Positions 14,581-56,213 of a stretch of DNA of 64,000 bases are shown here, piece after piece (position 1 is the first letter of the stretch; each line of letters opens with the position of its first letter). A program made the position numbers and the translations under genes. The stretch covers positions 79,425 to 143,424 of the forward strand of contig PDQZ01000008.1 in NCBI GenBank assembly GCA_002747955.1, given 5' to 3'. The notes beneath the pieces were generated by a model. It was not told where the DNA came from. It worked only from the letters and a program-made list of their open reading frames with translations, and did no database searches. The DNA is from Candidatus Campbellbacteria bacterium. Its GTDB lineage: Bacteria; Patescibacteriota; Minisyncoccia; Phycocordibacterales; GCA-2747955.

Positions 14581-14668
14581 AAAGCCCCAAATTTTGAAAA
14601 ATTTTTTAGAAAAAACGAAAGACAAAGTCTTTCGTTTTTTCCAAAAAATTTTTCAAAATTTGGGGATT
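14581..14668. repeat. long perfect-palindrome hairpin element (family member); bidirectional terminator between tatD and rnhA
   Basis: about 43-bp arms aaagccccaaattttgaaaaatttttt... around gacaaagtc; right arm overlaps the rnhA stop. Confidence 0.7.
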
Positions 14669-15168
14669 TATTTTAAATAATTATCTTCTTTTCCAACATA
14701 CAAATCAAACTCTGTTCTCATGGCAGAAAATCTTGCAATATCGTCTACTCGTTCGTTGTACTTTTGTCCGTTGTGAGCTTTAACATGGAAGTATTTTATT
14801 TTGTTGTCAGTTTTAATCATCTTTTCCATATTGTAAATATTTTGCCAAAGTTTTTTATTTTTAACTTCTTTTTTAGCAGAATTTTTCCAGCCGTTTTTAA
14901 TCCAGCTTTCAATCCATTCAGTTAAACCTTGAATGACATATTTTGAATCAGAATAAATTTGAATATCATATTCTTGTGCATTTTTGGAAATAATAGTTTC
15001 AAAAGCTTTGTAAATAGCCATCATTTCCATTTGGTTGTTTGTGGCATTTGCTTGGTAGCCTGCCATCTCCATAACTTTTTTATTTGCAAAAAAAATCACA
15101 CCCCAGCCACCATCTCCTGGATTATTTAAACTTGAACCATCTGTATAAATTAGCATTTTTTTCATCAA
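14668..15168 (-). CDS. rnhA: ribonuclease HI
   Basis: MLIYTDGSSLNNPGDGGWGV, NNQMEMMAIYKAFE, YSDSKYVIQG and HNGQKYNERVDDIAR match the RNase H DEDD fold. Confidence 0.8.
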   Translation of the reverse strand: MMKKMLIYTDGSSLNNPGDGGWGVIFFANKKVMEMAGYQANATNNQMEMMAIYKAFETIISKNAQEYDIQIYSDSKYVIQGLTEWIESWIKNGWKNSAKKEVKNKKLWQNIYNMEKMIKTDNKIKYFHVKAHNGQKYNERVDDIARFSAMRTEFDLYVGKEDNYLK

Positions 15169-15204
15169 AGTTATTTTAACATTTTTTGAAAATAAAAACT
15201 AATA

Positions 15205-15285
15205 AAAAGCCCGAAAATTTAATTTTGAAAAAGCTGAGAGGCCTTGCCTCTCAACTTTTTCAAAATTAAATTTTCGGGCTTTTTA
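15205..15285. repeat. long perfect-palindrome hairpin element (family member) in a divergent intergenic region
   Basis: aaaaagcccgaaaatttaattttgaaaaagctgagaggc-cttg-gcctctcagctttttcaaaattaaattttcgggcttttt; apex carries the GGCCTTGCC core. Confidence 0.7.
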
Positions 15286-15313
15286 GATCAAAAAATGATA
15301 TAATGTTTTTATT

Positions 15314-16378
15314 ATGGAAAACATCACAAGAAAAATATCATATACAGTTTTTGCTCTTTTGGGAGTTCCTGTGTTTTTATATTACAGCCGAGAAATTTTA
15401 ATCCCAATTGTTTTTGCTTTTTTGATTTGGTTTATTATTTTAATTTTCAAAAAATTTCTAGAAAAAATTAAAGTTTTTAATCACCAAATACCAAACTTTT
15501 TACAAAATATTATTTCAACAATAATTGTTTTTGTTTTAATTTTTGCAATTTCGTCTTTGGTGGCAGATAACGCAAATGAATTTGCTAAAGTTTTTCCAGA
15601 GTATAAAGAAAATGTAAATGCTCAAATTTTAAAACTTTCAGAATACACAAATGTAAACATTGTGGAAGGTATTACAAATTACATCAAAGGAATTAATTTC
15701 TCAAAAGTTCTTTACAGTTCTTTCGGTTTTGTCACAAACGCTATGGGAACACTGTTTCTGATTTTAATTTACGTTATTTTCCTTTCAGGAGAGAAAAAAT
15801 ATTTTAAAAAGAAACTTCAAAGTTCATTTAAAAACTCTCAAAGTTTAAAACACACAGAACTTGTTTTAGAAAAAATTTCATACTCAATTCAAAGATATTT
15901 ATCTTTAAAATCAACAATCAGTTTGTTAACAGCAGGATTGTCTTATATTGTTTTGGTTTTTGTAGGAGTTGATTTTGCTTTCTTGTGGGCATTTTTGATC
16001 TTTATTTTTAACTTTTTGCCAAATATCGGATCAATTATTGCAACTTTTTTTCCAACAGCTATTGCTTTGATTCAGTTTCCAACAATTACCGAAGGTATAA
16101 TCGTGCTTATTTCGATCACTGTTATTCAACTTATAGTAGGAAATGTGGTTGAACCAAAAGTTATTGGAAATTCTTTAAACTTAAGTTCTTTTGTAGTTAT
16201 TTTGTCCTTGGTCTTTTGGGGAGCTGTTTGGGGAATTGCTGGAATGTTTTTGTCAGTTCCGTTGATGGTTATTTTGATGATTATTTTGTCAAATATTGAA
16301 AAAACAAAACCCATTGCTATTTGGCTTTCTGCCACAGGGGAAGTTTCAAAAGTAAAAGGAATCGAAAAAATTAAATAA
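15314..16378 (+). CDS. AI-2E family (PerM/UPF0118) membrane transporter
   Basis: 8 predicted TM helices; C-terminal NLSSFVVILSLVFWGAVWGIAGMFLSVPLMVIL is typical of the family. Confidence 0.6.
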   Translation: MENITRKISYTVFALLGVPVFLYYSREILIPIVFAFLIWFIILIFKKFLEKIKVFNHQIPNFLQNIISTIIVFVLIFAISSLVADNANEFAKVFPEYKENVNAQILKLSEYTNVNIVEGITNYIKGINFSKVLYSSFGFVTNAMGTLFLILIYVIFLSGEKKYFKKKLQSSFKNSQSLKHTELVLEKISYSIQRYLSLKSTISLLTAGLSYIVLVFVGVDFAFLWAFLIFIFNFLPNIGSIIATFFPTAIALIQFPTITEGIIVLISITVIQLIVGNVVEPKVIGNSLNLSSFVVILSLVFWGAVWGIAGMFLSVPLMVILMIILSNIEKTKPIAIWLSATGEVSKVKGIEKIK

Positions 16379-16391
16379 TTTTTGATTAAAT

Positions 16392-16430: not shown

Positions 16431-16432
16431 TG

Positions 16433-16949: not shown

Positions 16950-19900
16950 ATGACTGAAAATAAAAATACAGATGATCAAAAAGATTATGATAAACTTTAT
17001 CCAAAAACACCTACTGTTTTAGATGAAAACGAGATTTTAGATTTTTGGAATCAAAATAAAATTTTTGAAAAATCAATAGAACAAAACAAAGAAAAAGAAC
17101 AATTTGTTTTTTACGATGGTCCGCCATTTGCAACAGGAACTCCGCACTACGGACACATTGTTCCTGGAACCATCAAAGACGTTTTCCCAAGATACAAATC
17201 AATGAAAGGGTATTATGTAAAAAGGCAATGGGGTTGGGACTGTCACGGAATGCCTATTGAAAACATTGTTGAAAAAAAACACAACCTAAATTCAAAAAAA
17301 GATATTGAAGAATTTGGAATCGAAAACTTCACAAAATCAGCCGCAGAATCTATTTTCACTTACAAAGATGTTTGGGAAGAAACAATCCCAAAAACAGGAC
17401 GATGGGCCGACATGACAAAACCGTATTTAACAATGTCGCCCGACTATATCGAGTCTGTTTGGTGGGCTTTTAAAGAGCTTTACGACAAAGGACTTGTCAC
17501 AAAAGATTTCAAAGCAATGCACATTTGTCCGCGTTGTGAAACAACACTTTCAAACAGAGACGTTTCAGAAGGATACAAAGATATCAAAGACCTATCTTTG
17601 ATTGCAAAATTCAAACTTGAAGACCAAAAAAACACTTTTGTTTTAGCTTGGACAACAACTCCTTGGACACTTCCAGGAAACGTGGCTTTGGCTGTGGGTT
17701 CAGATATTGATTATGTAAAAGTAAAAGACGCAGAAACTGAAGAATTTTTCATTTTTGCCAAAAACAAAAAAGAAGAATTAGAACAAAAATCTCAGAAAAC
17801 TTTTGAAGTGATCGAAGAGTTAAAAGGAAGCGATTTGATTGGACAAAAATACGTTCCACTTTTTGATTACTACGCAAAGAACAAAGATTTAAAAAACCAA
17901 GAAAACGGTTGGTTAATTTACGATGCAGATTTTGTAACAACAGAAGACGGAACAGGGATTGTTCATATTGCGCCTGCTTTCGGTGAAGACGATATGGAGC
18001 TTGGAAGACAACAAAGCCTGCCATTTGTTCAACATGTTGGAATGAACGGAAAATTCAACAAAGAAGTAACAGACTTTGCTGGTTTGAAAGTTCGAAAAAC
18101 AGACTTTCACGAAGAAGCCGATATTGAAATTATCAAATTTTTAGCAGGCAAAGGAGCACTATTTCACAAAGAAAAATACGAACACTCATATCCACACTGT
18201 TGGAGATGTAAAACTCCACTTTTAAACTATGCAGCATCGTCTTGGTTTGTAGATGTGCCACAAGTTAGAGAACAACTTGCCGAAGAAAACAAAAAAGTAG
18301 GTTGGGTTCCAGAATACGTTGGACAAAAACGTTTCCAAAACTGGCTTGAAACTGCCAGACCTTGGGCTGTTTCTCGTTCTCGATATTGGGGTTCACCAAT
18401 TCCAATTTGGCAAAACACAGAAGATCAAAACGATTTTAAAGTTATTGGTTCTTTAGAAGAGTTAAAAAACTATACACGAGGAACAAACAACTTTTTTGCT
18501 ATAAGACACGGACAATCAAAAGCAAATGTCAATGACAATTTATCATCAGAAATCGGAAAACACGGAGACGAGTTAACCGAAGAAGGTAAAAAACAAGTTT
18601 TAGAAAGAGCAAAAGAACTAAAAGAAACTGATTTTATTCAAAAAAATTCACAAGTTCAAAATTCAGACAAAATTGACATTATCATCTCATCTCCATTTGT
18701 AAGAACAAAACAATCAGCCGAAATCATCGCAGAGGAACTTGGAATTTCAAAAGATTACATTGTATATGACGAAAGAATTCAAGAAAGAGATTTTGGAAGT
18801 GCTACTGGAAAACCAAATCCGCTTTTTGACAAATGGATTGAAAATGAAGCCAAAACAGAAAACCATAAATTTGAAGGAGGTGAAAGTCACGCTGATATTG
18901 TTAAAAGAACAATGGAATTTTTGTTTGAAATTAATCAAAAATATGAAGGTAAAAATATTTTGCTTGTCACTCACTTTACACCAACTTATGTTATGGTTGC
19001 AACTTCTTTGGGTTATAACATGGAAAGAGCAAGAAAAATGCTAACACAAGAATGGAAAACAGTTCAAAACTCACAAGTTTATCCAATAAATTTTGCTCCA
19101 TATCCACACGACCAAAATTTCAAATTAGATTATCACAGACCGTATATTGATGATGTAAAATTTGTTCACGACGGTAAAAACTATGAAGTTATAACAGATG
19201 TTTTTGACACCTGGTTTGACTCAGGTTCAATGCCTTACGCTTCAAGACATTATCCTTTTGAAAACACAGATTTATTTAATCCAGAAAAAGACTTATCATA
19301 CCCGGCTGACTTTATCTCAGAAGGACTTGATCAAACTCGTGGATGGTTTTACGTTCTGATGGTTTTGGGATATATTTTGTTTGGAAAATCTCCATACAAA
19401 AATGTAGTTGTCCACGGAATGCTAATGGCCGAAGACGGAAAGAAAATGTCAAAATCTTTGCAAAACTATCCTCCAATGGAAAAAGTTTTGAACATTTATG
19501 GAGCTGATGCTTTAAGATTGTTTTTGTTAACATCTTCAATTGTAAAAGGAGATTCTCCCGGATTTTCTGAAAAAGGAGTAGACGAAATTTTGAAAAAAGT
19601 TATCATGAAGTCAAAAAACATCTTATCTTTTTACAACCTTTACAAAAACGAAGTTTCAAATAAAGAACTTGACTACAAAAAATCTCCAAATGTTTTAGAC
19701 AAATGGATTGTTAAAAAAACAGAAAATTTGGTTCAAAAAGTTACAGATGGTTTAGAATCATACAAGCTTGATGAAGCTTCAAGAGAATTTGTTTCGTTCA
19801 TTGACGACTTTTCAACTTGGTATATCAGAAGATCAAGAGACAGATACAAAGGACAAAATCAAGAAGATAAAGACTTTGCAATTTTAACAACCAAAGAAGT

Positions 19901-20618
19901 TTTGAAAACTTTTGCTAAAACAATTTCTCCATTTGCTCCATTTTTGTCAGAAGTTTTGTGGAAAGATTTGAAAAGCAACGACGACAAAATCTCTGTTTGT
20001 TTGGAATCTTGGCCTGAAATAAAAAAGAACTTAAAAGACAAAATCGTTTCAAACAAACATATTTTGGAGCAAATGCAAATGGTCCGAGACATCGTTTCAT
20101 TTGGTCTTGAAGCAAGATCAGAGGCAGGAATAAAAGTTCGACAACCTTTGCAAAAAGCACTTGCGGTAGGAGATTTTTCAGAAATTTCTAAAAATGAACA
20201 ATTTGTAGAAATTATCAAAGATGAGTTAAATGTAAAAGAACTTGTTTTTGCAGAAAACCTAGATGAGGTTCAGGAAAAATACAAAGAATTTGAAAACAAG
20301 GCTTTGGAAAACAAAGAAAGTGACAATGAAATTTTTGTATTTTTAGATACAGTTCTAAATGACGAACTTAAAGAAGAGGGAAATTTCAGAGAGTTTTTGA
20401 GACTTGTTCAAACCTTAAGAAAGAAAGAAGGTTTGCAAGTTAAAGATGAAATTGAACTTAAAATTGACGTTGACCAAAACTCAAAAGACTTTATTGAAAA
20501 AAATAAAGAAGAGCTAAAAAACACAGCGGGAGTAAAAAATATAAATTATTCTGAAATTCCAACAGGGGAAAGTGTAAAAATCAACGATATTGAACTTAAA
20601 GTAATTTTAATTAAATAA
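16950..20618 (+). CDS. ileS: isoleucyl-tRNA synthetase (type 2) with an inserted histidine-phosphatase (phosphoglycerate-mutase-like) domain
   Basis: HIGH (PHYGHIV), KMSKS, WCISRQ-like SRSRYWGSPIPIW; 1222 aa; insertion of about 200 aa with RHGQS, SSPFVRTKQSAEI, GGESHADIVKR and LLVTHF motifs. Confidence 0.9.
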   Translation: MTENKNTDDQKDYDKLYPKTPTVLDENEILDFWNQNKIFEKSIEQNKEKEQFVFYDGPPFATGTPHYGHIVPGTIKDVFPRYKSMKGYYVKRQWGWDCHGMPIENIVEKKHNLNSKKDIEEFGIENFTKSAAESIFTYKDVWEETIPKTGRWADMTKPYLTMSPDYIESVWWAFKELYDKGLVTKDFKAMHICPRCETTLSNRDVSEGYKDIKDLSLIAKFKLEDQKNTFVLAWTTTPWTLPGNVALAVGSDIDYVKVKDAETEEFFIFAKNKKEELEQKSQKTFEVIEELKGSDLIGQKYVPLFDYYAKNKDLKNQENGWLIYDADFVTTEDGTGIVHIAPAFGEDDMELGRQQSLPFVQHVGMNGKFNKEVTDFAGLKVRKTDFHEEADIEIIKFLAGKGALFHKEKYEHSYPHCWRCKTPLLNYAASSWFVDVPQVREQLAEENKKVGWVPEYVGQKRFQNWLETARPWAVSRSRYWGSPIPIWQNTEDQNDFKVIGSLEELKNYTRGTNNFFAIRHGQSKANVNDNLSSEIGKHGDELTEEGKKQVLERAKELKETDFIQKNSQVQNSDKIDIIISSPFVRTKQSAEIIAEELGISKDYIVYDERIQERDFGSATGKPNPLFDKWIENEAKTENHKFEGGESHADIVKRTMEFLFEINQKYEGKNILLVTHFTPTYVMVATSLGYNMERARKMLTQEWKTVQNSQVYPINFAPYPHDQNFKLDYHRPYIDDVKFVHDGKNYEVITDVFDTWFDSGSMPYASRHYPFENTDLFNPEKDLSYPADFISEGLDQTRGWFYVLMVLGYILFGKSPYKNVVVHGMLMAEDGKKMSKSLQNYPPMEKVLNIYGADALRLFLLTSSIVKGDSPGFSEKGVDEILKKVIMKSKNILSFYNLYKNEVSNKELDYKKSPNVLDKWIVKKTENLVQKVTDGLESYKLDEASREFVSFIDDFSTWYIRRSRDRYKGQNQEDKDFAILTTKEVLKTFAKTISPFAPFLSEVLWKDLKSNDDKISVCLESWPEIKKNLKDKIVSNKHILEQMQMVRDIVSFGLEARSEAGIKVRQPLQKALAVGDFSEISKNEQFVEIIKDELNVKELVFAENLDEVQEKYKEFENKALENKESDNEIFVFLDTVLNDELKEEGNFREFLRLVQTLRKKEGLQVKDEIELKIDVDQNSKDFIEKNKEELKNTAGVKNINYSEIPTGESVKINDIELKVILIK

Positions 20619-20622
20619 AGTT

Positions 20623-20717
20623 AAAAAGCCCAGAATTTTGGAGAATTTTTGGCGGAAAAAAAACAGGCGAAGCCTGTTTTTTTTCCGCCAAAAATTCTCC
20701 AAAATTCTGGGCTTTTT
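20623..20717. repeat. long perfect-palindrome hairpin element (family member); terminator after ileS
   Basis: aaaaagcccagaattttggagaatttttggcggaaaaaaaacaggc-gaa-gcctg...gggcttttt, about 45-bp arms. Confidence 0.7.
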
Positions 20718-20805
20718 AACCACTCAAAACTTCCAGGTTTAAATCGACTGAAAGCATTGAAAATAAAAGAAAAACAGCACATTTAAGTACTGTAATTCCT
20801 GTTTT

Positions 20806-20879
20806 GGGTGCCTACTCGGAATCGAACCGAGATTGTCGGATCCACAAACCGAAGTAATAACCGTTATACCATAGGCACC
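20806..20879 (-). tRNA. tRNA-His (anticodon GTG)
   Basis: Cloverleaf on the minus strand: extra 5-prime G(-1) pairing with discriminator C73, anticodon loop UUGUGGA, T-arm CUCGG-UUCGAUU-CCGAG; CCA not encoded. Confidence 0.8.
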
Positions 20880-22620: not shown

Positions 22621-22664
22621 AACAAAACAACAAAAACTTTGTTGTTTGGTTTTTGTTTAACCGG

Positions 22665-22712
22665 GCCCGAAAATTGAACCAAACTCCAAAAACACAGGTT
22701 CAATTTTCGGGC
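22665..22712. repeat. short member of the palindromic hairpin family
   Basis: gcccgaaaattgaacc-aaactccaaaaacaca-ggttcaattttcgggc; related to 43853..43891. Confidence 0.6.
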
Positions 22713-23124
22713 TTCATCACTTGCTTTTTTATTTTAAAATGATAAAACATTCTTATGGCTCTGGGTGTTATTAAAGATCAGTTCCTCCTAAATACACAAT
22801 TGATTTTAACACCCAGAGCCCACCACCTTTTTTTGAAGGAGGTTTTTTATTTGTCTTAAAAATAAGCTTAAAAATTTGACTACACTTATCCACACAAGTC
22901 AAATTTTATATTTGCCTTATTATTTTGCTATGTTATAATTATCTTTGCTCAAGCGTGCTTTGCACGTCGTCAAATTGTTAAGTGACCAGATCTATCTGGC
23001 ACGCTTGAGCAACCACCCTTCTGTTTTGAAGGCGGTTTTTTTATTTACCAACAATTTTCAAACAACCGTCAAGTTAATACTTGACAAATAAAATATATTT
23101 GTTAAAATATATTCAGAACTAAAA

Positions 23125-24233: not shown

Positions 24234-24350
24234 GCATATTTCTAAGGCTTGAGCTTTTGTTCAAGCCTTTTTTGTTTTAAAATTTCGGGTAAAAATATTT
24301 TTAATAAAAAACACTTTATGATATAATGTTAAAGATTTAATAAATATAAA

Positions 24351-25937
24351 ATGAGCGATTTAATTTTAGAAAAAATAAAAAGAGAAATAGAAAATTTTTC
24401 TTTAAATACAGAAGAAAATTTACAAACAGGAATAGTGTCTTCTGTTGCAGACGGTGTTGTTGAAATCAAAGGGCTTGAAAATGCTTTTATTTCAGAAATG
24501 CTTGTATTAACAAACCAAACTGACAAAAGTTTGAAAGAGTTGATTGAAAATCAAGACGAACAATCAGTTGTGGCTTTAGTTTTGAACGTTGAAGCAGATT
24601 CTATCAAAGCTGTTGTTTTAGGACAAGATGCAAATATCAAAGAAGGTTCACAAGTTTTAAGAACAGAAAAGATTCTTTCACTTGGAGTTTCAGATGAAAT
24701 TATCGGAAGAGTTGTTGATGCGCTTGGAAAACCAATTGACGGGAAAGGAGAAATCAAAGTTGATAAAGAAATGTTTTTGGAAAGAGAAGCTTTCGGAGTT
24801 ATGGATAGAGACTCTGTAAATGAACCTTTGCAAACAGGGATCAAAGCTGTTGACTCAATGATTCCAATCGGAAGAGGACAAAGAGAGCTTATCATTGGTG
24901 ACAGACAAACTGGAAAAACAACAATCGCTATTGATACAATTTTGAACCAAATCAACGAACCGGTTGAAACAAGACCTATTTGTGTTTATGTTTCTGTAGG
25001 ACAAAAAGACTCAAAAACAGCACAAATTGTTGCAAACCTTGAGAAAAACGGAGCGATGGATTATACAGTTGTGGTTTCTGCTGGTGCGTCAGCTGAAGCT
25101 GCACTTCAGTACTTGGCTCCTTTTGCAGGAGTTGCTATTGCGGAATACTTTATGGAAAAAGGAAAAGATGTTTTGATTATTTACGATGACTTGTCAAAAC
25201 ACGCGGTTGCTTACAGGCAGATGTCTTTGATTTTAAGAAGACCTCCTGGACGTGAAGCTTATCCTGGTGATGTATTTTATTTGCACTCAAGACTTTTGGA
25301 AAGATCAGCTAAGGTAAATGAAAAACTTGGAGGAGGTTCAATTACAGCACTTCCGATTATTGAAACACAAGAAGGTGACGTATCTGCATATATTCCAACA
25401 AACGTTATTTCAATTACAGATGGGCAAATTTTCCTTGATTTAACTTTGTTTAACAAAGGAATTAAACCTGCTGTTGATGTTGGACTTTCTGTTTCTCGTG
25501 TGGGTTCTGCTGCTCAAACAAAAGCTATGAAGTCAGTTTCAGGACCTGTGAAGCTTCAACTAGCACAGTTTAGAGAACTTGAAGCTTTTGCTCAGTTTGC
25601 TTCAGATCTTGATCAAGGAACAAAAGATAAAATGGACGCATCTGCAAAAGTTGTTGAAGCTTTGAAACAAGAAAATAACTCACCACTTTCTTTTGAAAAA
25701 CAAGCAGTAGTTCTGTTTTTTGTAACAAACGCTGACTTTGTGAAAGAAATTCCAGTTTCTGAAATTCAAAGAGTAGAAAAAGAATTTTTGGAAATTTTAG
25801 AAAATGAAAAACCAGAGATTTTAAAAGATATTAAAGAAACAAAGAAAATTACAGACGAGACAAAAGAAGATTTAACAAAATTTATTTTGGATTTTGTAAA
25901 AACTTTTAAAGAAGAATATTCGACAGAAGAGAAATAA
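24351..25937 (+). CDS. atpA: F-type ATP synthase alpha subunit (solitary)
   Basis: GDRQTGKTTIAID Walker A; alpha-specific regions (PGREAYPGDVFYLHSRLLER, ITDGQIFL); no flanking atp genes. Confidence 0.9.
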   Translation: MSDLILEKIKREIENFSLNTEENLQTGIVSSVADGVVEIKGLENAFISEMLVLTNQTDKSLKELIENQDEQSVVALVLNVEADSIKAVVLGQDANIKEGSQVLRTEKILSLGVSDEIIGRVVDALGKPIDGKGEIKVDKEMFLEREAFGVMDRDSVNEPLQTGIKAVDSMIPIGRGQRELIIGDRQTGKTTIAIDTILNQINEPVETRPICVYVSVGQKDSKTAQIVANLEKNGAMDYTVVVSAGASAEAALQYLAPFAGVAIAEYFMEKGKDVLIIYDDLSKHAVAYRQMSLILRRPPGREAYPGDVFYLHSRLLERSAKVNEKLGGGSITALPIIETQEGDVSAYIPTNVISITDGQIFLDLTLFNKGIKPAVDVGLSVSRVGSAAQTKAMKSVSGPVKLQLAQFRELEAFAQFASDLDQGTKDKMDASAKVVEALKQENNSPLSFEKQAVVLFFVTNADFVKEIPVSEIQRVEKEFLEILENEKPEILKDIKETKKITDETKEDLTKFILDFVKTFKEEYSTEEK

Positions 25938-25938
25938 A

Positions 25939-26039
25939 AAACAAAGCCCAAAATTTTAGAAAAGTTTTTGGTACAAAAAAAGCAGACTTCGTCTGCTTTT
26001 TTTGTACCAAAAACTTTTCTAAAATTTTGGGCCTTGTTT
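25939..26039. repeat. long perfect-palindrome hairpin element (family member) after atpA
   Basis: aaacaaagcccaaaattttagaaaagtttttggtacaaaaaaagcagac-ttcg-gtctgc...gggccttgttt. Confidence 0.7.
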
Positions 26040-26097
26040 TTATTTTTAACTAAAATTATGTTACAATAAACACAATGTATATAGTAAATATCATCTT

Positions 26098-29569: not shown

Positions 29570-30496
29570 ATGTTGACAAGAAACAATTCAAGGCAGCTGG
29601 CTTTACAGACAATGTTTGTTTTAGATACAAGATTTTTTGGTTTGGATTATCAAGAAAACCAAAATCTAGACACTGACAAAATCAGTGAGGTTTACTCTTA
29701 TGTTTTTGAAAATTTTTATAAAGATAAATCAAGTGGTGAGGATGAATTTTCTAAAAATTTAATTTTTGGAGTTGTCAAAAATCTAGAAGAAATTGATCAA
29801 TATATTCAAAAATTTGCTAAAAATTGGTCACTTGAAAAAACTGCGATTGTTGATAAAAATATTTTAAGAATTGCTATTTATGAGCTTTTGTTTTTTGAAA
29901 GTGAGTTACCAGGGAAAGTGGTAATCAACGAGGCTATTGAACTTGCTAAAAAATATGGACATAAAAAATCTCATTTATTTATTTCAGGACTTTTAGGTGC
30001 TTTATATGAGAACATGGGTTTGGAGAAAAAAGACCAGAAGTTGAATAGTTTACCCAAAAAAATTACCGAAAAGAAAAAAGTGGGTGCTTTGTGTTTTTAT
30101 AAAAAAGAAGGAAAAATTAAATATCTTTTAGTTCATAATATTTTTGGAAAATGGACACTACCTAAAGGTTCTGTTGAACAAGATTTTGACAACATAAACG
30201 ACGCTTTAAATTCAATTTTGAAAAGTAAAGTAAATGTTGAAGGAAAAGCAGGTGATATTATTGGTAAGAATGAATACAGTTCTTTAAAAGATGTTAGAAA
30301 TATTGTTAAAAAAGACATTGTTTATTTTATTTTTGAAGTTTCAAATCCAGGTGAAACTGAAGTGAAACAGAAAAATGGAGGTTTAAATAACGTAAAATGG
30401 TTTACTGAGGAAAATTTAAAAAAAGCTCAAACTTACGAAGATTTAGAAGAAATTATTCAAAAAGGAGTGGAATTAATTAAAAAACAAAATGTCTAA
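29570..30496 (+). CDS. nusB: NusB-like antitermination factor fused to a C-terminal Nudix-like domain
   Basis: N-terminal RQLALQTMFVLDTRFF...LEKTAIVDKNILRIAIYEL matches NusB; C-terminal VGALCFYKKEGKIKYLLVHNIFGKWTLPKGSVE resembles the Nudix fold but lacks REx2EE. Confidence 0.55.
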   Translation: MLTRNNSRQLALQTMFVLDTRFFGLDYQENQNLDTDKISEVYSYVFENFYKDKSSGEDEFSKNLIFGVVKNLEEIDQYIQKFAKNWSLEKTAIVDKNILRIAIYELLFFESELPGKVVINEAIELAKKYGHKKSHLFISGLLGALYENMGLEKKDQKLNSLPKKITEKKKVGALCFYKKEGKIKYLLVHNIFGKWTLPKGSVEQDFDNINDALNSILKSKVNVEGKAGDIIGKNEYSSLKDVRNIVKKDIVYFIFEVSNPGETEVKQKNGGLNNVKWFTEENLKKAQTYEDLEEIIQKGVELIKKQNV

Positions 30497-31175
30497 TTTA
30501 AATAAATTTGAAGAAAAAATCAACATAGAGTTTAAAAACAAAAAACTTTTAGAACTTGCTTTTACTCATAGATCATATTTAAATGAAGCTAAAAAATCAA
30601 ACCAGCACAACGAACGAATTGAGTTTTTAGGTGATGCGGTTTTAGAACTTGCTAGTACTGAATTTTTATACAAAAAATTTCCAGAAAAAAAAGAAGGAGA
30701 ACTTACGGCTTTAAGGTCTGCTTTGGTAAACACTTTTTCTTTGTTTCAAGCAGCAGAAAAACTTGGTTTAAATGACTATTTGCTTTTATCAAAGGGAGAA
30801 AAAACATCGGTTAAAGGTCGAGATCATATTTTAGCAAATACTTTTGAGGCGTTAATTGGAGCAATCTATTTAGAGTTTGGTTTTCGGAAAGTTCAAGAGT
30901 TTTTAGATCAAAATCTTTTTGGATATTTAGATGAAATTATCCAAAATAATTTACACAAAGACCCAAAGTCTTATTTTCAAGAACTTGCTCAAGAACACAA
31001 AAAAGTAACTCCTGAATACAAACTTCAAGATCATATTGGTCCTGATCATGATAAAGAGTTTGTAATGGCGGTTTTTTTGGGAGATGAAAAGATTGCCGAA
31101 GGCATAGGAACTTCAAAACAAAAAGCAGAAATTGAAGCGGCTAGAAATGCTTTAAAAAAAATGGCTTGGGATTAG
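30489..31175 (+). CDS. rnc: ribonuclease III
   Basis: ERIEFLGDAVLELASTEFLYKKFP RNase III signature plus C-terminal dsRBD. Confidence 0.85.
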   Translation: MSNLNKFEEKINIEFKNKKLLELAFTHRSYLNEAKKSNQHNERIEFLGDAVLELASTEFLYKKFPEKKEGELTALRSALVNTFSLFQAAEKLGLNDYLLLSKGEKTSVKGRDHILANTFEALIGAIYLEFGFRKVQEFLDQNLFGYLDEIIQNNLHKDPKSYFQELAQEHKKVTPEYKLQDHIGPDHDKEFVMAVFLGDEKIAEGIGTSKQKAEIEAARNALKKMAWD

Positions 31176-32281: not shown

Positions 32282-32397
32282 ATTTTTTCTCCTATATTTT
32301 AGAGATTTAAAAAATTCAACTTTCGTTGAAAACCAAAGAGTATTTTAATATAAAATTATTTTTTGTCAATTTCTTTAAAATTATTTTTGTGGATATT

Positions 32398-32492
32398 TAA
32401 AATCAGCCCGAAATTTTTTTGTATTTTTTAAATCCGTGAGGCCTTGCCTCACGGATTTAAAAAATGCAAAAAAAAATTTCGGTCTGATTTTA
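32398..32492. repeat. long perfect-palindrome hairpin element (family member) in a divergent intergenic region
   Basis: aaaatcagcccgaaatttttttgtattttttaaatccgtgaggc-cttg-gcctcacgg...cggtctgatttt; GGCCTTGCC core at the apex. Confidence 0.7.
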
Positions 32493-32532
32493 AAATTTGA
32501 TTATCTTTAATCAAATATGTTATAATTACCGA

Positions 32533-34311
32533 ATGAAAAATATTATTAAAAAATTAAAAGCAAAACTAAAAAAAAGAAAAGAAAATAAAAAAAAAGCTCA
32601 AAAAGGTTTTCAGAAAAAAAGTAAATGGAAAGTTTTCAGAAAAATCATTTTTTGGTTAATAATTATTTCACTTTTAGGGTGGGCTTTTCACAATATCGCT
32701 AAAAAGTTTTATGGCAACCAAGAAAAAGAACAGAACTTTTTAATCATTGAGCCAGTTTCAAAAGGCGATGTTTCTTCTTCTTTTACGGCCGAAGGAATGA
32801 TTAAAGCTGAAAGAAAACAAAACTTAGATGTTTACAAAAAAAACTACAGATTAGACTTGTTAAAAGTTAAAAACGGTTCTTCTGTAAAAAAAGGAGATAT
32901 TTTGTTTGCTTTTGATTCATCAGATTACTCAACAAGTATTCAAAGAGCATACATATCTTATCAAAAAGCACTTTTAGATTTTCAAAATCAAAAAGTTTTA
33001 AAGCAAATCTCACAAGATATTGGAAACTCAGAAATTGCTTTGGGTTCTTTAGAAAGAACGATTTTAAGAAAAAAACAAGAAGTAAAAGAATTAAGAGAAA
33101 AGTTTTATTCTAAAAATTTAGAACTTATCCCAAACGAAGATGGGGTGAGTGATGATGAAGATATAGAAAAACCAACCATTTCAGGAGAGTATAAGTTAGA
33201 AAAAGAAGGACAATACGAAATCGAAATATATAATTCTTCTACAAAATCAGGTTACTCTTTTAGATATACAGGACTTGAAAATGGGGTTGGTTCTGTTATT
33301 TTTGGAAAACCACAAGATCTTGGGAAAAATGGTTTAGAGATCAATTTTTCACCTCAAAGTTTAGATGATTGTAGAAAATGGATTTTAAAAGTTCCAAACA
33401 CAGAACATAAAGATTATAAAGATAATGAAAGGGAATACAAAGAAGCTTTAGAAGATTTGATCGACTTTTACAAAAGAAATGAATTGGATTTGAAATCTTC
33501 AAAACAAAAACTTAAACACGACATTGAAGTTGATCAACACAATTTCGATATTCAAGAGGGAAGACTTGCTTTAAATGAGGCTTTAAAAGCTTATCAGGAT
33601 GCAAAAAGAGACAGAGACGAACTTGTGGTCAAAGCTCCTTTTGACGGAATAATAAATGGAATGCAAGATGTAACAGTGGGTGAAAAACCCAAAGACACAG
33701 ACGATGTAATGAAATTTGGAACTTTGATTTCAAATGATTTTGTGGTTGAGTTTGCACTTCAAATTACTGATTTGGAGAAAATTAAAATTGGGCAAGAAAT
33801 AGATGTCGATGCAAATTTAGGTTTTGAAACAAAAACTTTAAAAGCCGAAATTGAACAAATCGGAGCGCTTCCGGAGGGTGGACTTTATCCTGTTGTGGCG
33901 AAAATTGTTTTGGGAGAGGAAAAAGTTTTCTTGAAAGAAGGTGTTGCAGCAACAGTTAAAATCATAAGTGAAAGCAAAGAAGATGTTTTAAAAATCCCAA
34001 ACAGTGCTATTTCTTATGATGCTGATAAAAAATATGTTCTTCTAGTTATCCAAACACAAGAATTGCAAAAAAGCAAAGACGACAAAAATTCAGAAGACGG
34101 AATTGTTAGTTTAGAAGAAAATAAAGTAATAACTGAAAAGAAATTTATTGTAACAGGCCTTGAAGGTTTACAATACACAGAGATTAAAGAAGGACTGAAA
34201 GAGGGGGATAAAATTGTTACAACAACTCAAATTCAGTCTGGACAAACAGATTATGATGAGTTTGGGGGTGGCGGAAAAATGGATGAAGAAATGAGTGTGG
34301 AAGAATACTAA
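32533..34311 (+). CDS. membrane fusion / periplasmic adaptor protein (HlyD/MacA-like) with a large insertion
   Basis: N-terminal TM, long coiled coil, C-terminal beta-barrel-like region; followed by a MacB-type ATPase and permease; start set at the ATG 6 nt after TGTTATAAT. Confidence 0.55.
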   Translation: MKNIIKKLKAKLKKRKENKKKAQKGFQKKSKWKVFRKIIFWLIIISLLGWAFHNIAKKFYGNQEKEQNFLIIEPVSKGDVSSSFTAEGMIKAERKQNLDVYKKNYRLDLLKVKNGSSVKKGDILFAFDSSDYSTSIQRAYISYQKALLDFQNQKVLKQISQDIGNSEIALGSLERTILRKKQEVKELREKFYSKNLELIPNEDGVSDDEDIEKPTISGEYKLEKEGQYEIEIYNSSTKSGYSFRYTGLENGVGSVIFGKPQDLGKNGLEINFSPQSLDDCRKWILKVPNTEHKDYKDNEREYKEALEDLIDFYKRNELDLKSSKQKLKHDIEVDQHNFDIQEGRLALNEALKAYQDAKRDRDELVVKAPFDGIINGMQDVTVGEKPKDTDDVMKFGTLISNDFVVEFALQITDLEKIKIGQEIDVDANLGFETKTLKAEIEQIGALPEGGLYPVVAKIVLGEEKVFLKEGVAATVKIISESKEDVLKIPNSAISYDADKKYVLLVIQTQELQKSKDDKNSEDGIVSLEENKVITEKKFIVTGLEGLQYTEIKEGLKEGDKIVTTTQIQSGQTDYDEFGGGGKMDEEMSVEEY

Positions 34312-36209: not shown

Positions 36210-36300
36210 AAACAAAGCCCGAAATTTTTGGTGAGTTTTTTGAAAAAATAAAAGGCAATGCCTTTTATTTTTTCAAAAAACTCACCAAAAATTTCGGGAT
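36210..36300. repeat. long perfect-palindrome hairpin element (family member)
   Basis: aaacaaagcccgaaatttttggtgagttttttgaaaaaataaaaggc-aatg-gcctttt...cgggat; about 80% identical to 41933..42030 with mirrored substitutions. Confidence 0.7.
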
Positions 36301-36388
36301 AGTTTAAAATTTAAAACTTTACTTTTTTTAAAAAAGGTATATAATGTATTTATAAATCTCCGAAAGGAGTTTTTTAATAAAAAAAATT

Positions 36389-37611: not shown

Positions 37612-37614
37612 AAA

Positions 37615-37860: not shown

Positions 37861-37861
37861 T

Positions 37862-41932: not shown

Positions 41933-42030
41933 AAACAAAGCCCGAAATTTTTGATAAGTTTTTTTGAAAAAACAAAAGGCGTTGCCTTTTGTTTTTTCAA
42001 AAAAACTTATCAAAAATTTCGGGATTTGTT
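41933..42030. repeat. long perfect-palindrome hairpin element (family member)
   Basis: aaacaaagcccgaaatttttgataagtttttttgaaaaaacaaaaggc-gttg-gccttttg...cgggatttgtt. Confidence 0.7.
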
Positions 42031-42031: not shown

Positions 42032-42670
42032 TCAATGTGCCATTGCAATAAAATAAACTCTTTTTGCTCCTGCTTTTTTTAAAACTTTTTCGGCCTCCTT
42101 TAAAGTGGATCCTGTTGTATAAATATCATCAAACAAAATTACATTTTTATTTTTTAAATCAAAACCTTTTTTAACATCAAAAGCATTTTTAACATTTTCT
42201 TTTCTTTTTTTTATATTTTTCATTTTGTTTTGAGGTTTGGTGTGTTTTTTCTTTTTTAAAATATTTTCAATTCTAACAAAATTAGAGCCGCCCATTTTTT
42301 CAAAATATCTTAAAATCAAAATATTTTGACTATAAGTTCTTTTCAGTCTTCTTAATATGAAACAGGGAACTGGAACTAGTACAAAATCATTAAAATTTTT
42401 TTCAAATTTTAACTTTTCCTGAATATCAAAAATATTTTGATACAAAATCTGAGCAAAGACGAAAGCTGGTTTTTTATTTTTGTGAAATTTCAATTGCCAA
42501 AACATTTCTTTGATTTTTTTATTTTTATAGTCTAAAAAATAAAAAAGTTTTTCGTCACTTTTAAAAATTAATTTATAATTAATTTTTTTTGCTTGCAATT
42601 TTTGTGGTAAAAAAATATCTAAATATTTTTTTAATATTTTTAAAAAATCTTTTTTTCTGTTATAATACAT
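42032..42670 (-). CDS. comF: ComF-family phosphoribosyltransferase-domain protein
   Basis: C-terminal PRTase motif VILFDDIYTTGSTLKEAEKVLKKAGAKRVYFIAMAH. Confidence 0.65.
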   Translation of the reverse strand: MYYNRKKDFLKILKKYLDIFLPQKLQAKKINYKLIFKSDEKLFYFLDYKNKKIKEMFWQLKFHKNKKPAFVFAQILYQNIFDIQEKLKFEKNFNDFVLVPVPCFILRRLKRTYSQNILILRYFEKMGGSNFVRIENILKKKKHTKPQNKMKNIKKRKENVKNAFDVKKGFDLKNKNVILFDDIYTTGSTLKEAEKVLKKAGAKRVYFIAMAH

Positions 42671-43786: not shown

Positions 43787-43836
43787 AAAAAACACGATTT
43801 TGGCAAACACAACCACACAGCCAAAATCGTGTTTTT
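43787..43836. terminator. intrinsic terminator after pilM
   Basis: aaaaacacgattttggc-aaacacaaccacaca-gccaaaatcgtgttttt. Confidence 0.6.
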
Positions 43837-43852
43837 ATTTATTCTAAATTAA

Positions 43853-43891
43853 GGGCCGAAAATTTGACCCCACCCAACCACCCAGGTCAAA
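43853..43891. repeat. short member of the palindromic hairpin family
   Basis: gggccgaaaatttgacc-ccacccaaccaccca-ggtcaaattttcggccc. Confidence 0.6.
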
Positions 43892-43970
43892 TTTTCGGCC
43901 CACCCAAACCTTTAAAGTTATCAACATTTTTTCTTAACTTATCTTTCTTTTTTTGATAAAATGAATATGT

Positions 43971-46052: not shown

Positions 46053-46080
46053 TTCGAATCCCTCCGGAAGCTACAAGACA
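46053..46080. repeat. inverted duplicate of the tRNA-Arg 3-prime portion plus 9 nt of its trailer
   Basis: tcgaatccctccggaagctacaagacac is the reverse complement of 46122..46148 (gtgtcttgtgcttccggagggattcga) with one indel; an internal terminator hairpin lies between the copies. Confidence 0.7.
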
Positions 46081-46122
46081 CAGAAAAAACTTAAAGCTGT
46101 CGCTTTAAGTTTTTGTGTCTTG

Positions 46123-46194
46123 TGCTTCCGGAGGGATTCGAACCCCCAAAAGCGGTTTCGAAGACCGCTGTGATATCCATTTCACCACGAAAGC
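46123..46194 (-). tRNA. tRNA-Arg (anticodon TCG)
   Basis: Minus-strand cloverleaf GCTTTCG / GTGA-AATGGATA-TCAC / GCGGT-CTTCGAA-ACCGC / TTCGAAT T-loop / CGGAAGC, discriminator A. Confidence 0.8.
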
Positions 46195-46829: not shown

Positions 46830-46849
46830 AATAGAAAAAAATCAAAAAT

Positions 46850-46898
46850 CAAGGCCTTGCCTTGAGATAGGCAAGGCCTATCTCAAGGCAAGGCCTTG
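46850..46898. repeat. 49-bp perfect palindrome (triple-hairpin/cruciform capable), copy 1 of 2 identical copies
   Basis: caaggccttgccttgagataggc-aag-gcctatctcaaggcaaggccttg; identical to 60313..60361 with about 8 bp of shared flanks. Confidence 0.8.
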
Positions 46899-47012
46899 TT
46901 TTTTCTTTTTTAAATTCAAAAAATATGCTATTATTTATATTAAGATAAGTTAAAATAGGCTAAATAGATCTGTTATTGACAAATTGAAATAAAGTAGTAT
47001 AATAAAATAAAC

Positions 47013-55262: not shown

Positions 55263-55641
55263 GTTAATTAAAAAACCTCATTTATTAAACTATTTGTAGG
55301 TTTTTTAATTTATGATATAATATAAGTATGGAAGAATTAAGAATTAAAACAGGCGCAGGATCTTCTGATAGTTCAAAAACAGAAGTTACGACTCCAGCAC
55401 AAACACAAACAGCAAGTATTGTAAATTCAAACTCAAAATTTTTACCACAAGATATAATCTTTTGGTCTGAGATGTTGATAATCACTTTTTTGATTTTGTT
55501 TTTGACATTTAAATATCTTGTTCCTAAAGAAAAATAGAAAGTTTGTTTGTGAAATTTAAAAAACTAAAATTAAATTTTAATTTTAGTTTTTTAATTTAAA
55601 ATTATTTTTTGATTTGGGTTTTTTGTGTTATAATTTGGAGC

Positions 55642-56100
55642 ATGGTTTATTTAAGTAAAGAGAAGTTAGAAGAACTTAAAAAAGAGTTGGAAGAATTAAC
55701 AACTGTTGGTCGAAAAGAAATTGCAGAAAGACTTGATGAAGCAAAATCTTATGGTGATTTGAAAGAAAATGCAGAGTATCATCAAGCTCGAGAAGATCAA
55801 GGAATTATGGAGTCAAGAATTTTAGAAATTGATGACATAATTAAAAATTCAGAAGTTTTTAAAAAACACAAAGCAACAAAGGTAGAACTTGGTTGTGTTG
55901 TTGTGATTGCTAAAAAAGGTTCAAAAGAAAAAAATACTTATGAAATTGTAGGCTCTCAAGATGCTGATATTTTTGCAGGAAAACTTGACAGACACGCTCC
56001 ACTTGCAGTTGCGATGATGGAAAAAACAGAAGGTGAGTTTTTTGATTTTAAAAAACCAAATGGTGAAAGTATAACTTATAAAGTTGTTGATATTAAGTAA
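55642..56100 (+). CDS. greA: transcription elongation factor GreA
   Basis: MVYLSKEKLEELKKELEELTTVGRKEIAERLDEAKSYGDLKENAEYHQAREDQ; start 8 nt after TGTTATAAT. Confidence 0.8.
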   Translation: MVYLSKEKLEELKKELEELTTVGRKEIAERLDEAKSYGDLKENAEYHQAREDQGIMESRILEIDDIIKNSEVFKKHKATKVELGCVVVIAKKGSKEKNTYEIVGSQDADIFAGKLDRHAPLAVAMMEKTEGEFFDFKKPNGESITYKVVDIK

Positions 56101-56118
56101 GTTTTTGGGGGAGGTTGA

Positions 56119-56213
56119 TTAAAGCTCGAAATTTTGAAGCAAATTTTTGGAAAAAAGAACAAGCGACGCTTGTTCTTTTTTCCAAAAATTTGCTTCAAAA
56201 TTTCGGGCTTTAA
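56119..56213. repeat. long perfect-palindrome hairpin element (family member) after greA
   Basis: aaagctcgaaattttgaagcaaatttttggaaaaaagaacaagcg-acg-cgcttgtt...aaatttcgggcttt. Confidence 0.7.

Follow-up and report, generated by a model that had tools for sequence, protein, structure and literature searches.

A dispersed family of near-perfect palindromes in a Candidatus Campbellbacteria bacterium: possible REPIN-like, two-tier bidirectional terminators

The Candidatus Campbellbacteria bacterium studied here carries a dispersed family of near-perfect DNA palindromes of about 80-105 bp each. We analyzed a stretch of 64,000 nucleotides of contig PDQZ01000008.1 (the window, to which all coordinates below refer unless a contig is named); contig extension lengthened it by about 3 kb on the upstream side and by about 7.6 kb on the downstream side. 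Eight long palindromes, with arms of 40-51 nt, 0-2 mismatches and a centre of 1 or 3 nt, lie between housekeeping genes that are of mixed orientation and have promoter-like sites of their own. The long elements that an earlier note had reported for this DNA are all real and lie within a few bases of where it had placed them. The palindromes, with their scores under model R1, are as follows.

14576..14674: palindrome with 48-nt arms, 2 mismatches and centre AAA (89.7 bits), between convergent tatD (+ strand, stop at 14575) and rnhA (- strand), the rnhA stop codon (14668-14670) lying within the right arm
15203..15285: palindrome with 40-nt arms, 1 mismatch and centre CTT (76 bits), between divergent rnhA (start 15168) and an AI-2E transporter gene (start 15314), with an extended -10 box at 15296-15304
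20620..20720: palindrome with perfect 49-nt arms and centre GAA (92 bits), 1 nt past the ileS stop and convergent with tRNA-His (20806-20878, - strand)
25932..26046: palindrome with 51-56-nt arms and centre TTC (86 bits), covering the last codon and stop of atpA (atpA end 25937), with the alaS start 56 nt downstream
32396..32494: palindrome, the most degenerate copy, with 85% arm identity, a 2-nt bulge and centre CTT (70 bits), flanked by promoter-like sites on the - strand (32369-32342) and the + strand (32497-32526)
36210..36306: palindrome with perfect 40-nt arms, a G-A mismatch at the base and centre A (97 bits), 2 nt past the stop of a MacB-like permease gene and upstream of nusG
41934..42030: palindrome with 47-nt arms, a G-A mismatch at the base as in 36210 and centre GTT (94 bits), 1 nt past the stop of a - strand gene (42032-42670)
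56118..56214: palindrome with 48-nt arms, 1 G-T pair and centre A (89 bits), 17 nt past the greA stop and 34 nt ahead of the L10 leader (56248-56366)

Four further hairpins in the window carry the outer motif of these palindromes or a related one.

859..893: short terminator hairpin with a 15-bp stem and loop GAA, followed by TTTTGTTTT; its outer motif, AAGCCCGAAAA, is as in the long palindromes
22662..22715, + strand: hairpin of a different class, with the family outer motif (GCCCGAAAATTG...) and a 16-nt C/A-rich loop, 3' of an M48 peptidase gene
43851..43903, + strand: hairpin of the C/A-rich-loop class, whose outer motif (GGCCGAAAATTTG...) is related to that of the family and whose loop is 15 nt long
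63773..63838, + strand: half-element between convergent genes, in which the left outer arm (AAAGCCCGAAAATTTTTG...) is fused to an unrelated 15-bp terminator hairpin and the right outer arm is absent (only 19.9 bits)

These four are set apart from the family proper. The hairpin at 859, taken earlier for a half-element (860-894), is a whole short hairpin that bears the family outer motif, and the two that had been counted as family members at 22665-22712 and 43853-43901 form a separate class with an 18-bp stem and a C/A-rich loop of 15-16 nt; the one at 43851 is the second of two C/A-rich-loop hairpins after pilM. The half-element proposed at 63771-63838 does contain the left outer arm, and its remainder is an unrelated short terminator hairpin, so that the window holds 8 full copies and 1 clear half-element in 64 kb. 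The outer motif is not exclusive to the long palindromes and is also the stem base of the genome's short terminator hairpins. All 13 of its occurrences are intergenic and none falls within coding sequence, which covers most of the window, and nearly all are paired in hairpins. The tetraloops described earlier proved to be spacers of 3 nt or 1 nt (e.g., GAGGC-CTT-GCCTC, not CTTG).

The palindromes stand well clear of background. The window has 19 centres with arms of at least 30 nt and at most 2 mismatches, and none of 10 shuffles has any; a gapped outer-arm pattern matched 3 times against 0.00 expected, and the outer-arm 15-mer, with up to 3 mismatches allowed, matched 30 times against 12 +/- 3.6 expected. 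Family copies scored 64-97 bits with model R1 and the rest of the same organism's DNA at most 48 bits, and the predicted stem fold energies of the copies range from -52 to -83 kcal/mol. A metagenome scan returned 72 loci, most of which were one unrelated, non-palindromic 72-nt sequence on human-gut and phage contigs; true copies were found in ten PDWI01 loci, on contigs of the same composition as the window, where 11 copies lie behind other housekeeping genes. With these, 19 copies are known, palindromy is retained outside the window, and the elements are a genuine dispersed family in which the outer arms are conserved and the interiors vary but remain paired.

Beyond this organism, a pattern scan of 185,579 species (the source MAG not among them) matched 8 loci, with both strands matched only in a Paceibacterota locus that is 70% palindromic (L007). 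A viral scan matched only the unrelated gut sequence, and two copies had no BLAST match among phage and plasmid records. Apart from the organism itself, the best match to its AlaRS was 60% identical, and our search for close relatives in which empty sites or orthologous gaps could be compared found none. Three distant relatives that were sampled lacked long perfect palindromes; one of them is L094, which has the same GC content and the 60% AlaRS identity and was checked over 14 kb. At the gathering score, Rfam recognized only the tmRNA, two tRNAs and the L10 leader in the window and a single tRNA in the ten PDWI01 loci, and no family copy was matched. One of the PDWI01 contigs also contains a palindrome outside the family, with 34-nt arms (L058, 11627-11697), whose permissive, sub-threshold Rfam matches were generic miRNA-precursor hairpins; neither ARAGORN nor Rfam confirmed a tRNA-like end beside it.

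Assembly of perfect palindromes is difficult, and fold-back chimeras or another assembly or amplification artefact might in principle produce such structures. The Logan contigs fetched for the organism, which derive from the same run, all break off 11-21 nt from a palindrome centre, except for one that ends at a dispersed repeat instead. We nevertheless regard an artefact as highly improbable: the 19 copies have one consensus with different unique genes on either side, three assemblies contain them (the NCBI MAG, PDWI01 and, as arms only, Logan), they are placed specifically after stop codons, and chimeras would be expected to be long and random. It follows from where the Logan contigs end that long palindromes break short-read assemblies.

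Placement relative to genes is the first feature that points to a function. A stop codon precedes 15 of the 19 copies by 0-73 nt, and mostly by 0-17 nt; the exceptions are one copy 171 nt from a stop and three copies in divergent gaps. Genes ahead of copies include ileS, atpA, greA, tatD, topA, pilB, a PBP gene and uvrA. For the 18 copies whose gap could be classed, convergent, tandem and divergent gaps number 4, 11 and 3, roughly the proportions of the gaps themselves, and in all 11 tandem gaps the copy is closer to the upstream stop than to the downstream start. Copies had previously been described between convergent, tandem and divergent genes, and this is borne out: 15203 and 32396 each separate a divergent gene pair and have a promoter-like site on either side, and L013 8312-8408 is the third such copy among the 19. 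The further statement that the elements are "not simply terminators" was too strong, resting as it did on two of the eight window copies (three of 19 overall), while the others lie 0-73 nt past a stop.

The anatomy of the copies is also terminator-like. In most of them, an inner terminator consisting of an A-tract, a stem and a T-tract is nested in an outer stem that is closed by a conserved GCCCG/CGGGC clamp and followed by a T-tract. At least 5 T in 8 nt were found after the inner stem in 13 of 19 copies and after the outer clamp in 13 of 19, and every copy (19/19) has at least one of the inner and outer T-rich tracts in the direction of the upstream gene; outer T-tracts are poor in 36210, L057 and L066. 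A terminator scan called the inner hairpins on both strands. Based on anatomy and position, we infer that the family terminates transcription. RNA polymerase arriving from either side would first meet the inner module, in which the A-tract, the short G-C-closed stem and the T-tract would act as an ordinary bidirectional terminator; on read-through, the full hairpin of 40-50 bp would fold, and the clamp with its second T-rich tract could provide a second chance to stop.

Ju et al. (2019; cited in PMC13613805) reportedly described bidirectional intrinsic terminators. Those that are known share with the family a symmetric arrangement of A-tract, stem and T-tract and a location after stops, between convergent genes or before the next promoter, but they have stems of about 5-15 bp and do not form sequence families, whereas here two terminator modules are nested in a perfect palindrome of 90 bp and some copies lie between divergent promoters. 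A-tracts and T-tracts flanking the stem are a described feature of intrinsic terminators (PMC1852404), and the long palindromes would be missed by those terminator predictors whose stem-loop length is limited to about 59 nt (PMC1852404). Several observations fit termination poorly: the three copies between divergent promoters have nothing obvious to terminate, a 45-bp stem far exceeds what termination needs, the relative L094 has no comparable hairpin in 14 kb in spite of the same GC content, and the conserved AAATTTT beside the clamp finds no explanation in termination.

An RNA role other than termination could also place copies at the 3' ends of genes. Under this alternative, a duplex of 40-50 bp would be a substrate of RNase III or a 3' stabilizer and would set mRNA ends or half-lives. 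RNase III needs a duplex of roughly 20 bp, which the stems far exceed, and genes for RNase III (30489-31175), RNase J and PNPase are present in the genome. We consider this reading improbable, as G-U pairs would be tolerable in an RNA duplex and yet are almost absent (4 of 851 pairs), the symmetry of the two strands is perfect even where only one strand is expected to be transcribed, and the right outer arm would seldom be transcribed if the inner terminator works.

The scarcity of G-T pairs (4/851) is one part of a wider pattern in the symmetry of the arms. The two arms of a copy are 97% identical to each other, as compared to a median arm identity of 69% between copies, and when 18 copies were aligned and folded as a consensus, the outer 15 nt varied hardly at all, 28 of 37 stem pairs showed compensatory double changes, and one-sided changes numbered only 3. 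These data agree with the earlier proposal of strong covariation or arm-to-arm conversion. Copies 36210 and 41934, cited earlier as about 80% identical with every substitution mirrored, are in fact about 90% identical; their 4 differences (3 substitutions and 1 indel) are indeed all mirrored in the opposite arm. Fresh changes that are not mirrored were seen as a 1-nt indel in L058 and a 7-nt duplication in L062. The mismatches across copies (4 G-T, 3 A-C, 4 G-A and 1 C-T) are too few for a test of strand bias. As for the centres, symmetry beyond a 3-nt loop (a 1-nt centre) occurs in 4 of 19 copies, which is near chance and therefore does not discriminate between DNA-level and RNA-level constraint, and neither the loop sequence nor the orientation of the loop relative to transcription gave a consistent signal across the copies.

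Palindromy moreover reaches a variable 0-10 nt past the conserved core and runs on into copy-specific flanks, over a mean of 4.7 nt as compared to 2.4 nt when flanks were cross-paired between copies (permutation p = 5e-5). In a related case, the 3'-terminal 19 nt of tRNA-Arg recur in mirrored form beyond the tRNA-Arg terminator. It thus seems that the symmetry is kept up by a DNA copying process and not by selection alone. We infer that the process is intrastrand template switching at the DNA level (quasi-palindrome correction, or arm-to-arm conversion) rather than selection on RNA pair by pair, and the same template switching would extend the palindromes outward into their flanks. Quasi-palindrome correction and template switching (10.1101/2023.04.19.537475; PMC7999016) both perfect imperfect inverted repeats and add inverted copies of adjacent sequence, and would account for mirrored substitutions and indels as well as for the mirrored tRNA end; template switching is familiar as a source of mutations at individual loci, whereas here it would have acted across a whole functional family. 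A limit of the conversion view is seen in L037 and L058, in which the palindromes are identical at 99 of 100 positions while the adjoining coding DNA is about 87% identical; unbiased conversion between arms does not explain a palindrome that stays unchanged beside coding DNA diverged by about 13%.

If template switching acts on these sequences, each palindrome might have been made locally from a short terminator by repeated events, with the resemblance among copies reflecting convergence rather than descent. The short terminators of the genome already use stem bases of the AAAGCCCGAAAATTT type, the palindromes absorb what lies next to them (the tRNA-Arg 3' end, stop codons and copy-specific flanks), and the outer motif is also present on long palindromes of two unrelated metagenome contigs, L020 (40% GC) and L039. 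Growth outward, however, predicts variable sequence on the outside, and what is observed is conserved sequence outside and variable sequence inside. There are also signs of copying. Copies 14576, 36210 and 41934 have a G-A mismatch in common at the same position and are mutual closest relatives, the last two at the 90% identity noted above, and the interior block GAAAAAGYTGAGAGGCCTTGCCTCTC is common to the unlinked copies 15203 and L083. The near-identity of the L037 and L058 palindromes likewise counts toward descent. Some copies therefore descend from one another, and subfamilies have derived mismatches in common; an origin of every palindrome in place is accordingly improbable, though somewhat less so than the RNA role discussed above. 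The reading of the family as terminators would have the copies derived from one another through duplication.

Copying among unlinked sites raises the question of mobility. The family might be selfish, non-autonomous DNA of the REPIN or MITE type, mobilized by an enzyme encoded elsewhere, such as a RAYT-like Y1 transposase that acts on the ends of the folded strand; terminator activity would then be incidental, and the position behind genes would mark where insertions are tolerated. The architecture is that of REPINs, with inverted conserved ends about 70-85 bp apart, a paired and less conserved interior and a strictly extragenic location (PMC3116915). Doublets far outnumber singlets (19 full copies as compared to 1-2 halves), copies in divergent gaps are about proportional to such gaps, abundance is lineage-specific, subfamilies have derived characters in common, and the genome contains further hairpin repeat families, including two identical 59-nt copies and tandem clusters. 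On the other side, no target-site duplication accompanies the copies (inspection of the flanks revealed no direct repeats beside any of them, a check that the earlier note had proposed), the ends are not sharp, and pairing goes on into flanks that are peculiar to each copy. A master sequence is lacking: no two copies are the same, the median arm identity is 69%, and only three between-copy pairs have an arm identity of at least 86%, unlike in active REPIN or MITE populations. No transposase was found among the genes of the window, with no transposase domain in the window proteins scanned, and tblastn of E. coli RayT against 158 kb gave no homologue (best E = 0.14). A consistent GTAG or CGTC tag (PMC3733652) is absent from the flanks, GTAG being near only 4 independent copies at varying distance. 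Copies in tandem gaps, finally, are always on the stop-codon side. Taken together, we hold mobilization by an enzyme encoded elsewhere to be a tentative reading, appreciably more credible than assembly in place.

The comparison with known repeats can be made more specific. REPINs and the family have in common two conserved inverted ends roughly 70-110 bp apart with a less conserved spacer that pairs into one hairpin, a strictly extragenic location in all gap types, an excess of doublets over singlets and many copies per lineage. The family differs from REPINs in that no RAYT was found in 158 kb and the GTAG/CGTC tag is missing, and in that its end motif is not a clear REP hairpin (it pairs weakly with a following GG(C) in some arms, as in L047 and L083, but not generally); its copies are all different and form no cloud around a master, its arms are near-perfectly complementary over their whole length, its bias to the stop-codon side is strong, its terminator anatomy is nested, and it resides in a CPR bacterium whose genome is very small. 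A MITE with target-site duplications was rejected, given flanks without direct repeats and ends that are not fixed. Correia/NEMIS-type MITEs (PMC3184786) are, like the family, short non-coding intergenic repeats that fold into hairpins and can end transcripts, but they have terminal inverted repeats, a non-palindromic interior, target-site duplications and high identity among copies, none of which was seen here. Two of the candidates put forward earlier, a REP/MITE-like family and bidirectional terminator/insulator modules, fit the data and are mutually compatible; no target-site duplication, transposase or RAYT gene was found in the DNA searched.

CPR bacteria depend on DNA uptake, and the palindromes might instead serve as double-stranded DNA or as cruciforms, i.e., as a pair of uptake sequences like those in Neisseria and Haemophilus terminators, as a recombination site of the attC type, or as a site with phased A/T tracts that absorbs supercoils or binds a protein. 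Like DUS/USS (PMC1852404), the conserved 12-15-mer is found in inverted pairs at the stems of terminators. PilM, a protein of type IV pilus assembly, is encoded in the window, each aligned arm has AnTn tracts spaced about 10-11 bp from one another, and the divergent promoters that flank some copies are places where negative supercoiling builds up. In the DUS/USS terminators of Neisseria and Pasteurellaceae (Kingsford et al. 2007, PMC1852404), as in the family, one 10-15-mer forms the terminator stem as an inverted pair, and stems are longer than usual. Uptake sequences, however, are abundant singly and inside genes at about 1 per kb, whereas the family motif is intergenic in 13 of 13 cases and nearly always paired, with a density of only about 1 pair per 8 kb and with stems of 40-50 bp as compared to about 11 in DUS/USS terminators (PMC1852404). 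The DUS-like reading was rejected because the outer motif is absent from coding DNA (0/13), where uptake sequences are frequent. Sites of the attC type likewise have conserved outer inverted boxes, a paired interior of variable length and a position directly 3' of genes, but their extrahelical bases, their imperfect stems and their co-oriented arrays of promoterless cassettes beside an integrase have no counterpart in the family. The genes around the copies have housekeeping functions, mixed orientations and promoters of their own and do not form cassette arrays, no integrase was found among the genes of the window, the stems are perfect, and the attC/integron reading was rejected on gene context and flanks as well. 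A role as a DNA site is overall slightly less probable than the RNA role.

The reading that we prefer, at about even confidence, is that of a lineage-specific, REPIN-like family of hairpin repeats that serve as two-tier bidirectional terminators or insulators and whose symmetry is maintained by template switching. A stronger form of the idea, which we hold as tentatively as mobilization by a transposase, is that template switching or fold-back makes, enlarges and renews the hairpins, which take in the ends of adjacent genes as they expand, are copied to gene ends without a transposase and would thus constitute a self-symmetrizing, RAYT-independent, REPIN-like replicator used by the host as its strong terminators; genome reduction could have enabled such a replicator by removing palindrome-cleaving or 3'-exonuclease functions. 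CPR genomes are usually deemed too streamlined for repeat families, and our literature search for such elements in CPR bacteria found nothing. If the interpretation is true, REPIN-like hairpin repeats extend to the Candidate Phyla Radiation, perfect palindromes of 90-100 bp can persist in numbers in a bacterial chromosome, and the family offers a natural case in which a mutational mechanism, and not selection base pair by base pair, shapes and maintains a class of regulatory elements.

The long palindromes are genuine and far exceed chance expectation. Inverted-repeat search, folding and a separate palindrome scan confirmed eight long elements at the places reported in the earlier note (named here by their window start: 14576, 15203, 20620, 25932, 32396, 36210, 41934 and 56118), with arms of 40-51 nt, 0-2 mismatches, a centre of 1 or 3 nt and fold energies of -52 to -83 kcal/mol. 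Centres with arms of at least 30 nt numbered 19 in the real window versus 0 in each of 10 shuffles, and the gapped outer-arm pattern occurred three times versus 0.00 expected. Several details needed correction: the centres described as tetraloops are 3-nt spacers, the presumed half-element at 860-894 is a complete short hairpin, and the elements at 22665 and 43853, listed as family members, belong to a separate class with a large C/A-rich loop.

The window is gene-dense chromosomal DNA of 30% G+C that carries housekeeping genes (tatD, rnhA, ileS, atpA, alaS, nusG, rplK, rplJ, rplL, greA, those for RNase J and RNase III, and others) and, as non-coding RNA genes, one tmRNA, two tRNAs and one L10 leader; the closest match to its AlaRS outside its own organism is only 60% identical. 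The isoleucyl-tRNA synthetase (16950-20618; 1222 aa) has a precomputed internal match to a histidine phosphatase domain (His_Phos_1), which is an uncommon pairing. Extended -10 boxes (TGnTATAAT) lie just 6-10 nt ahead of the ATG at 15296-15316 and 32497-32535 in the window and at about 4320-4341 of L062, a locus outside it; this spacing at several genes suggests that the organism may have leaderless or nearly leaderless mRNAs.

A pattern scan of species-representative genomes returned virtually no relevant match. A metagenome pattern scan retrieved 10 relevant loci, all on contigs of assembly PDWI01, with 11 further full copies (one lying outside what the pattern itself selected), and the palindromy thus holds outside the window. 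These loci equal the window in G+C and have other short repeats in common with it; their single-copy housekeeping genes are different ones (topA, pilB, a PBP gene, uvrA, pnp, rmuC and mscS), and no locus overlaps the window, which argues that they are other regions of the same genome or of one closely resembling it. A covariance model of the family (R1), built from 18 copies and scored on all 19, gave 64-97 bits for 19 of 19 copies and at most 48 bits for anything else from the organism, a gap that marks the long form as a discrete class. Logan contigs (run SRR6011893) exactly match the window and end 11-21 nt from the palindrome centres, which is the expected behaviour of a k-mer assembler at a true palindrome. 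Short-read contigs are also broken by repeats, 88-94% identical, that encode PG_binding_1 domains of several paralogous genes; contig L010 stops at window 9354.

PG_binding_1 repeats
window 9308-9772
window 11727-12190
window 13432-13669
L037 1-131 (outside the window)
L058 6959-7135 (outside the window)

On two unrelated metagenome contigs, L020 (3598-3689; 40% G+C, OmpA/TPR protein) and L039 (608-767; 24% G+C), long palindromes with arms of 44 nt and 77 nt, respectively, carry the outer motif AAAGCCC-N-AAATTT as in the family and score 60-69 bits with R1; either terminators commonly have this motif at their base, or families of this kind also occur in other genomes. In the window, a lone right-arm motif, AAAATTTCGGG (24279-24289), lies directly past a short terminator hairpin (24244-24269) with its left partner absent, and may be a second decayed half-element.

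The covariation or arm-to-arm conversion proposed in the earlier note was borne out, as arms within a copy average 97% complementary versus a median identity of 69% between copies, and changes are two-sided in 28 of the 37 pairs of the consensus fold and one-sided in only three. Copies 36210 and 41934 are 90% rather than 80% identical, and their differences are indeed mirrored in the opposite arm (4 of 4, one an indel); G-T makes up 4 of 851 predicted pairs. Because one mismatch or wobble costs a 45-bp stem almost nothing, such perfection, including mirrored indels, is hard to credit to per-pair selection and points to the copying of one arm from its partner. Pairing also runs past the conserved core into copy-specific flanks (mean 4.7 nt, versus 2.4 nt for flanks cross-paired between copies; permutation p = 5e-5), in several cases taking in a stop codon. 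The last 19 nt (46124-46142) of the tRNA-Arg gene (46122-46194, minus strand) recur in perfect inverted form at 46053-46071, across the gene's own terminator hairpin, which was extended to a 90-nt palindrome (46053-46142) that takes in the functional gene from the T loop to the acceptor end. Since the end of a functional gene is not insertable, this mirror copy must have arisen in situ; like the flank pairing, it fits arm-from-arm copying. In the primary transcript, the palindrome would compete with the tRNA-Arg fold. Template switching within one strand would both keep arms symmetrical and lengthen them. Fresh changes confined to one arm occur in the copies in L058 and L062.

Copies also descend from other copies, as indicated by a G-A mismatch at the same place in 14576, 36210 and 41934, which are mutually closest relatives, and by interior blocks common to unlinked copies. 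The palindromes at L037 132-230 and L058 6861-6960 are identical at 99 of 100 nt, differing by one indel, the paralogous gene ends beside them are about 87% identical, and homology ends exactly at the palindrome's far edge, a pattern that would reflect either strong constraint along the entire element or a recent conversion event between the loci. Among relatives, L094 (14 kb, at the same 30% G+C) contains no segment with a fold energy below -40 kcal/mol (the window has 2.5 such segments per 10 kb), and L096 and L097, whose higher G+C makes fold energies not comparable with the window, have no long perfect palindromes. Copies are spread over gap types in about the same proportions as the gaps themselves. 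Together with the copies between divergent promoter-like sites described below, these points argue that the elements are more than terminators. The main rival explanation, a selfish mobile repeat with incidental terminator-like features, is one that we regard as unlikely.

With regard to position, the earlier claim that the elements are not simply terminators stands in part: three copies (15203, 32396 and, outside the window, L013 8312-8408) have divergent promoter-like sites on their two sides, whereas 15 of the 19 follow stop codons, starting 0-73 nt past them and mostly within 17 nt. Another copy (L013 314-396) lies 171 nt past a stop codon, in 11 of 11 tandem gaps the distance from the copy to the upstream stop is shorter than that to the downstream start, and one copy falls precisely in the interval that separates the greA stop from the rplJL promoter and leader. 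In the aligned arms, AAAGCCCGAAATTTT is followed by a variable stretch of 4-6 bases, a run of T, a G, a run of A and finally a short stem with G-C closure; made up of an A-tract, a stem and a T-tract, the centre thus has the predicted anatomy of a normal terminator that acts in both directions. T fills at least 5 of 8 positions of the inner T-tract in 13 of 19 copies; in 13 of 19, a second stem with GCCCG/CGGGC closure wraps the centre and is followed by a further T-rich tract; and all 19 have at least one inner or outer T-tract oriented for the upstream gene. A consensus scan flagged inner hairpins on both strands, and the outer motif is common to short terminators of the same genome and absent from coding DNA in the window. 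On the best-supported reading, to which we give roughly even credence, the palindromes are dispersed hairpin repeats akin to REPINs and would serve as nested terminators or insulators in both directions, and intrastrand template switching would preserve their symmetry and extend it.

REPINs, which are inverted REP doublets, have conserved inverted ends, a variable spacer that still pairs, extragenic location and doublets that far outnumber singlets (PMC3116915); the family described here has the same architecture in all of these respects, but is without the GTAG/CGTC tag and without a master sequence, and no RAYT, the Y1 transposase associated with REPINs, was found in the 158 kb searched. The best-known recurrence of one motif in terminator stems is that of Neisseria and Haemophilus terminators with inverted uptake sequences (PMC1852404); uptake sequences, however, are also plentiful inside genes, a difference from the outer motif here. 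Gene context and flanks ruled out attC sites and cut-and-paste MITEs. No Rfam family matches the palindromes, and a search of the accessible literature found no report of comparable elements in CPR bacteria.

Additional hairpin repeat families are present in the same genome, including a second, more G+C-rich palindrome family.

G+C-rich palindromes
46837-46911, 3' of a plus-strand gene
60308-60366, 3' of a plus-strand gene

These two have 59 identical nt plus a T-rich right flank of about 12 nt in common, with the centre motif nested in each arm (CAAGGC-CTT-GCCTTG), and look as if a region that already had a small hairpin had undergone inverted duplication.

C/A-loop hairpins
window 22662-22715
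window 43787-43837
window 43851-43903
L010 1689-1753
L083 7242-7292
L061 1485-1531
L013 4974-5025

These have a stem of 17-19 bp, its base often GCCCGAAAATT, and a AAACACAAAAACACA-like loop of 15-16 nt; in 7 of 7, the hairpin lies just 3' of a gene and it is the sense strand that has the C/A-rich loop, a strand specificity that suggests a possible RNA-level role.

Tandem nested imperfect hairpin units
window 57397-57826, after rplL
window 37606-37870, after rplK
L058 3884-4141
L058 8474-8842
L083 9081-9321
L013 6149-6391

These units, without an Rfam match, are about 125-160 nt long, with outer arms AAAAAACTTGAAAAATTGG / CCAATTTTTCAAGTTTTTT and an inner hairpin loop of TGTGTTAT or its complement ATAACACA, and are 70-90% alike across loci.
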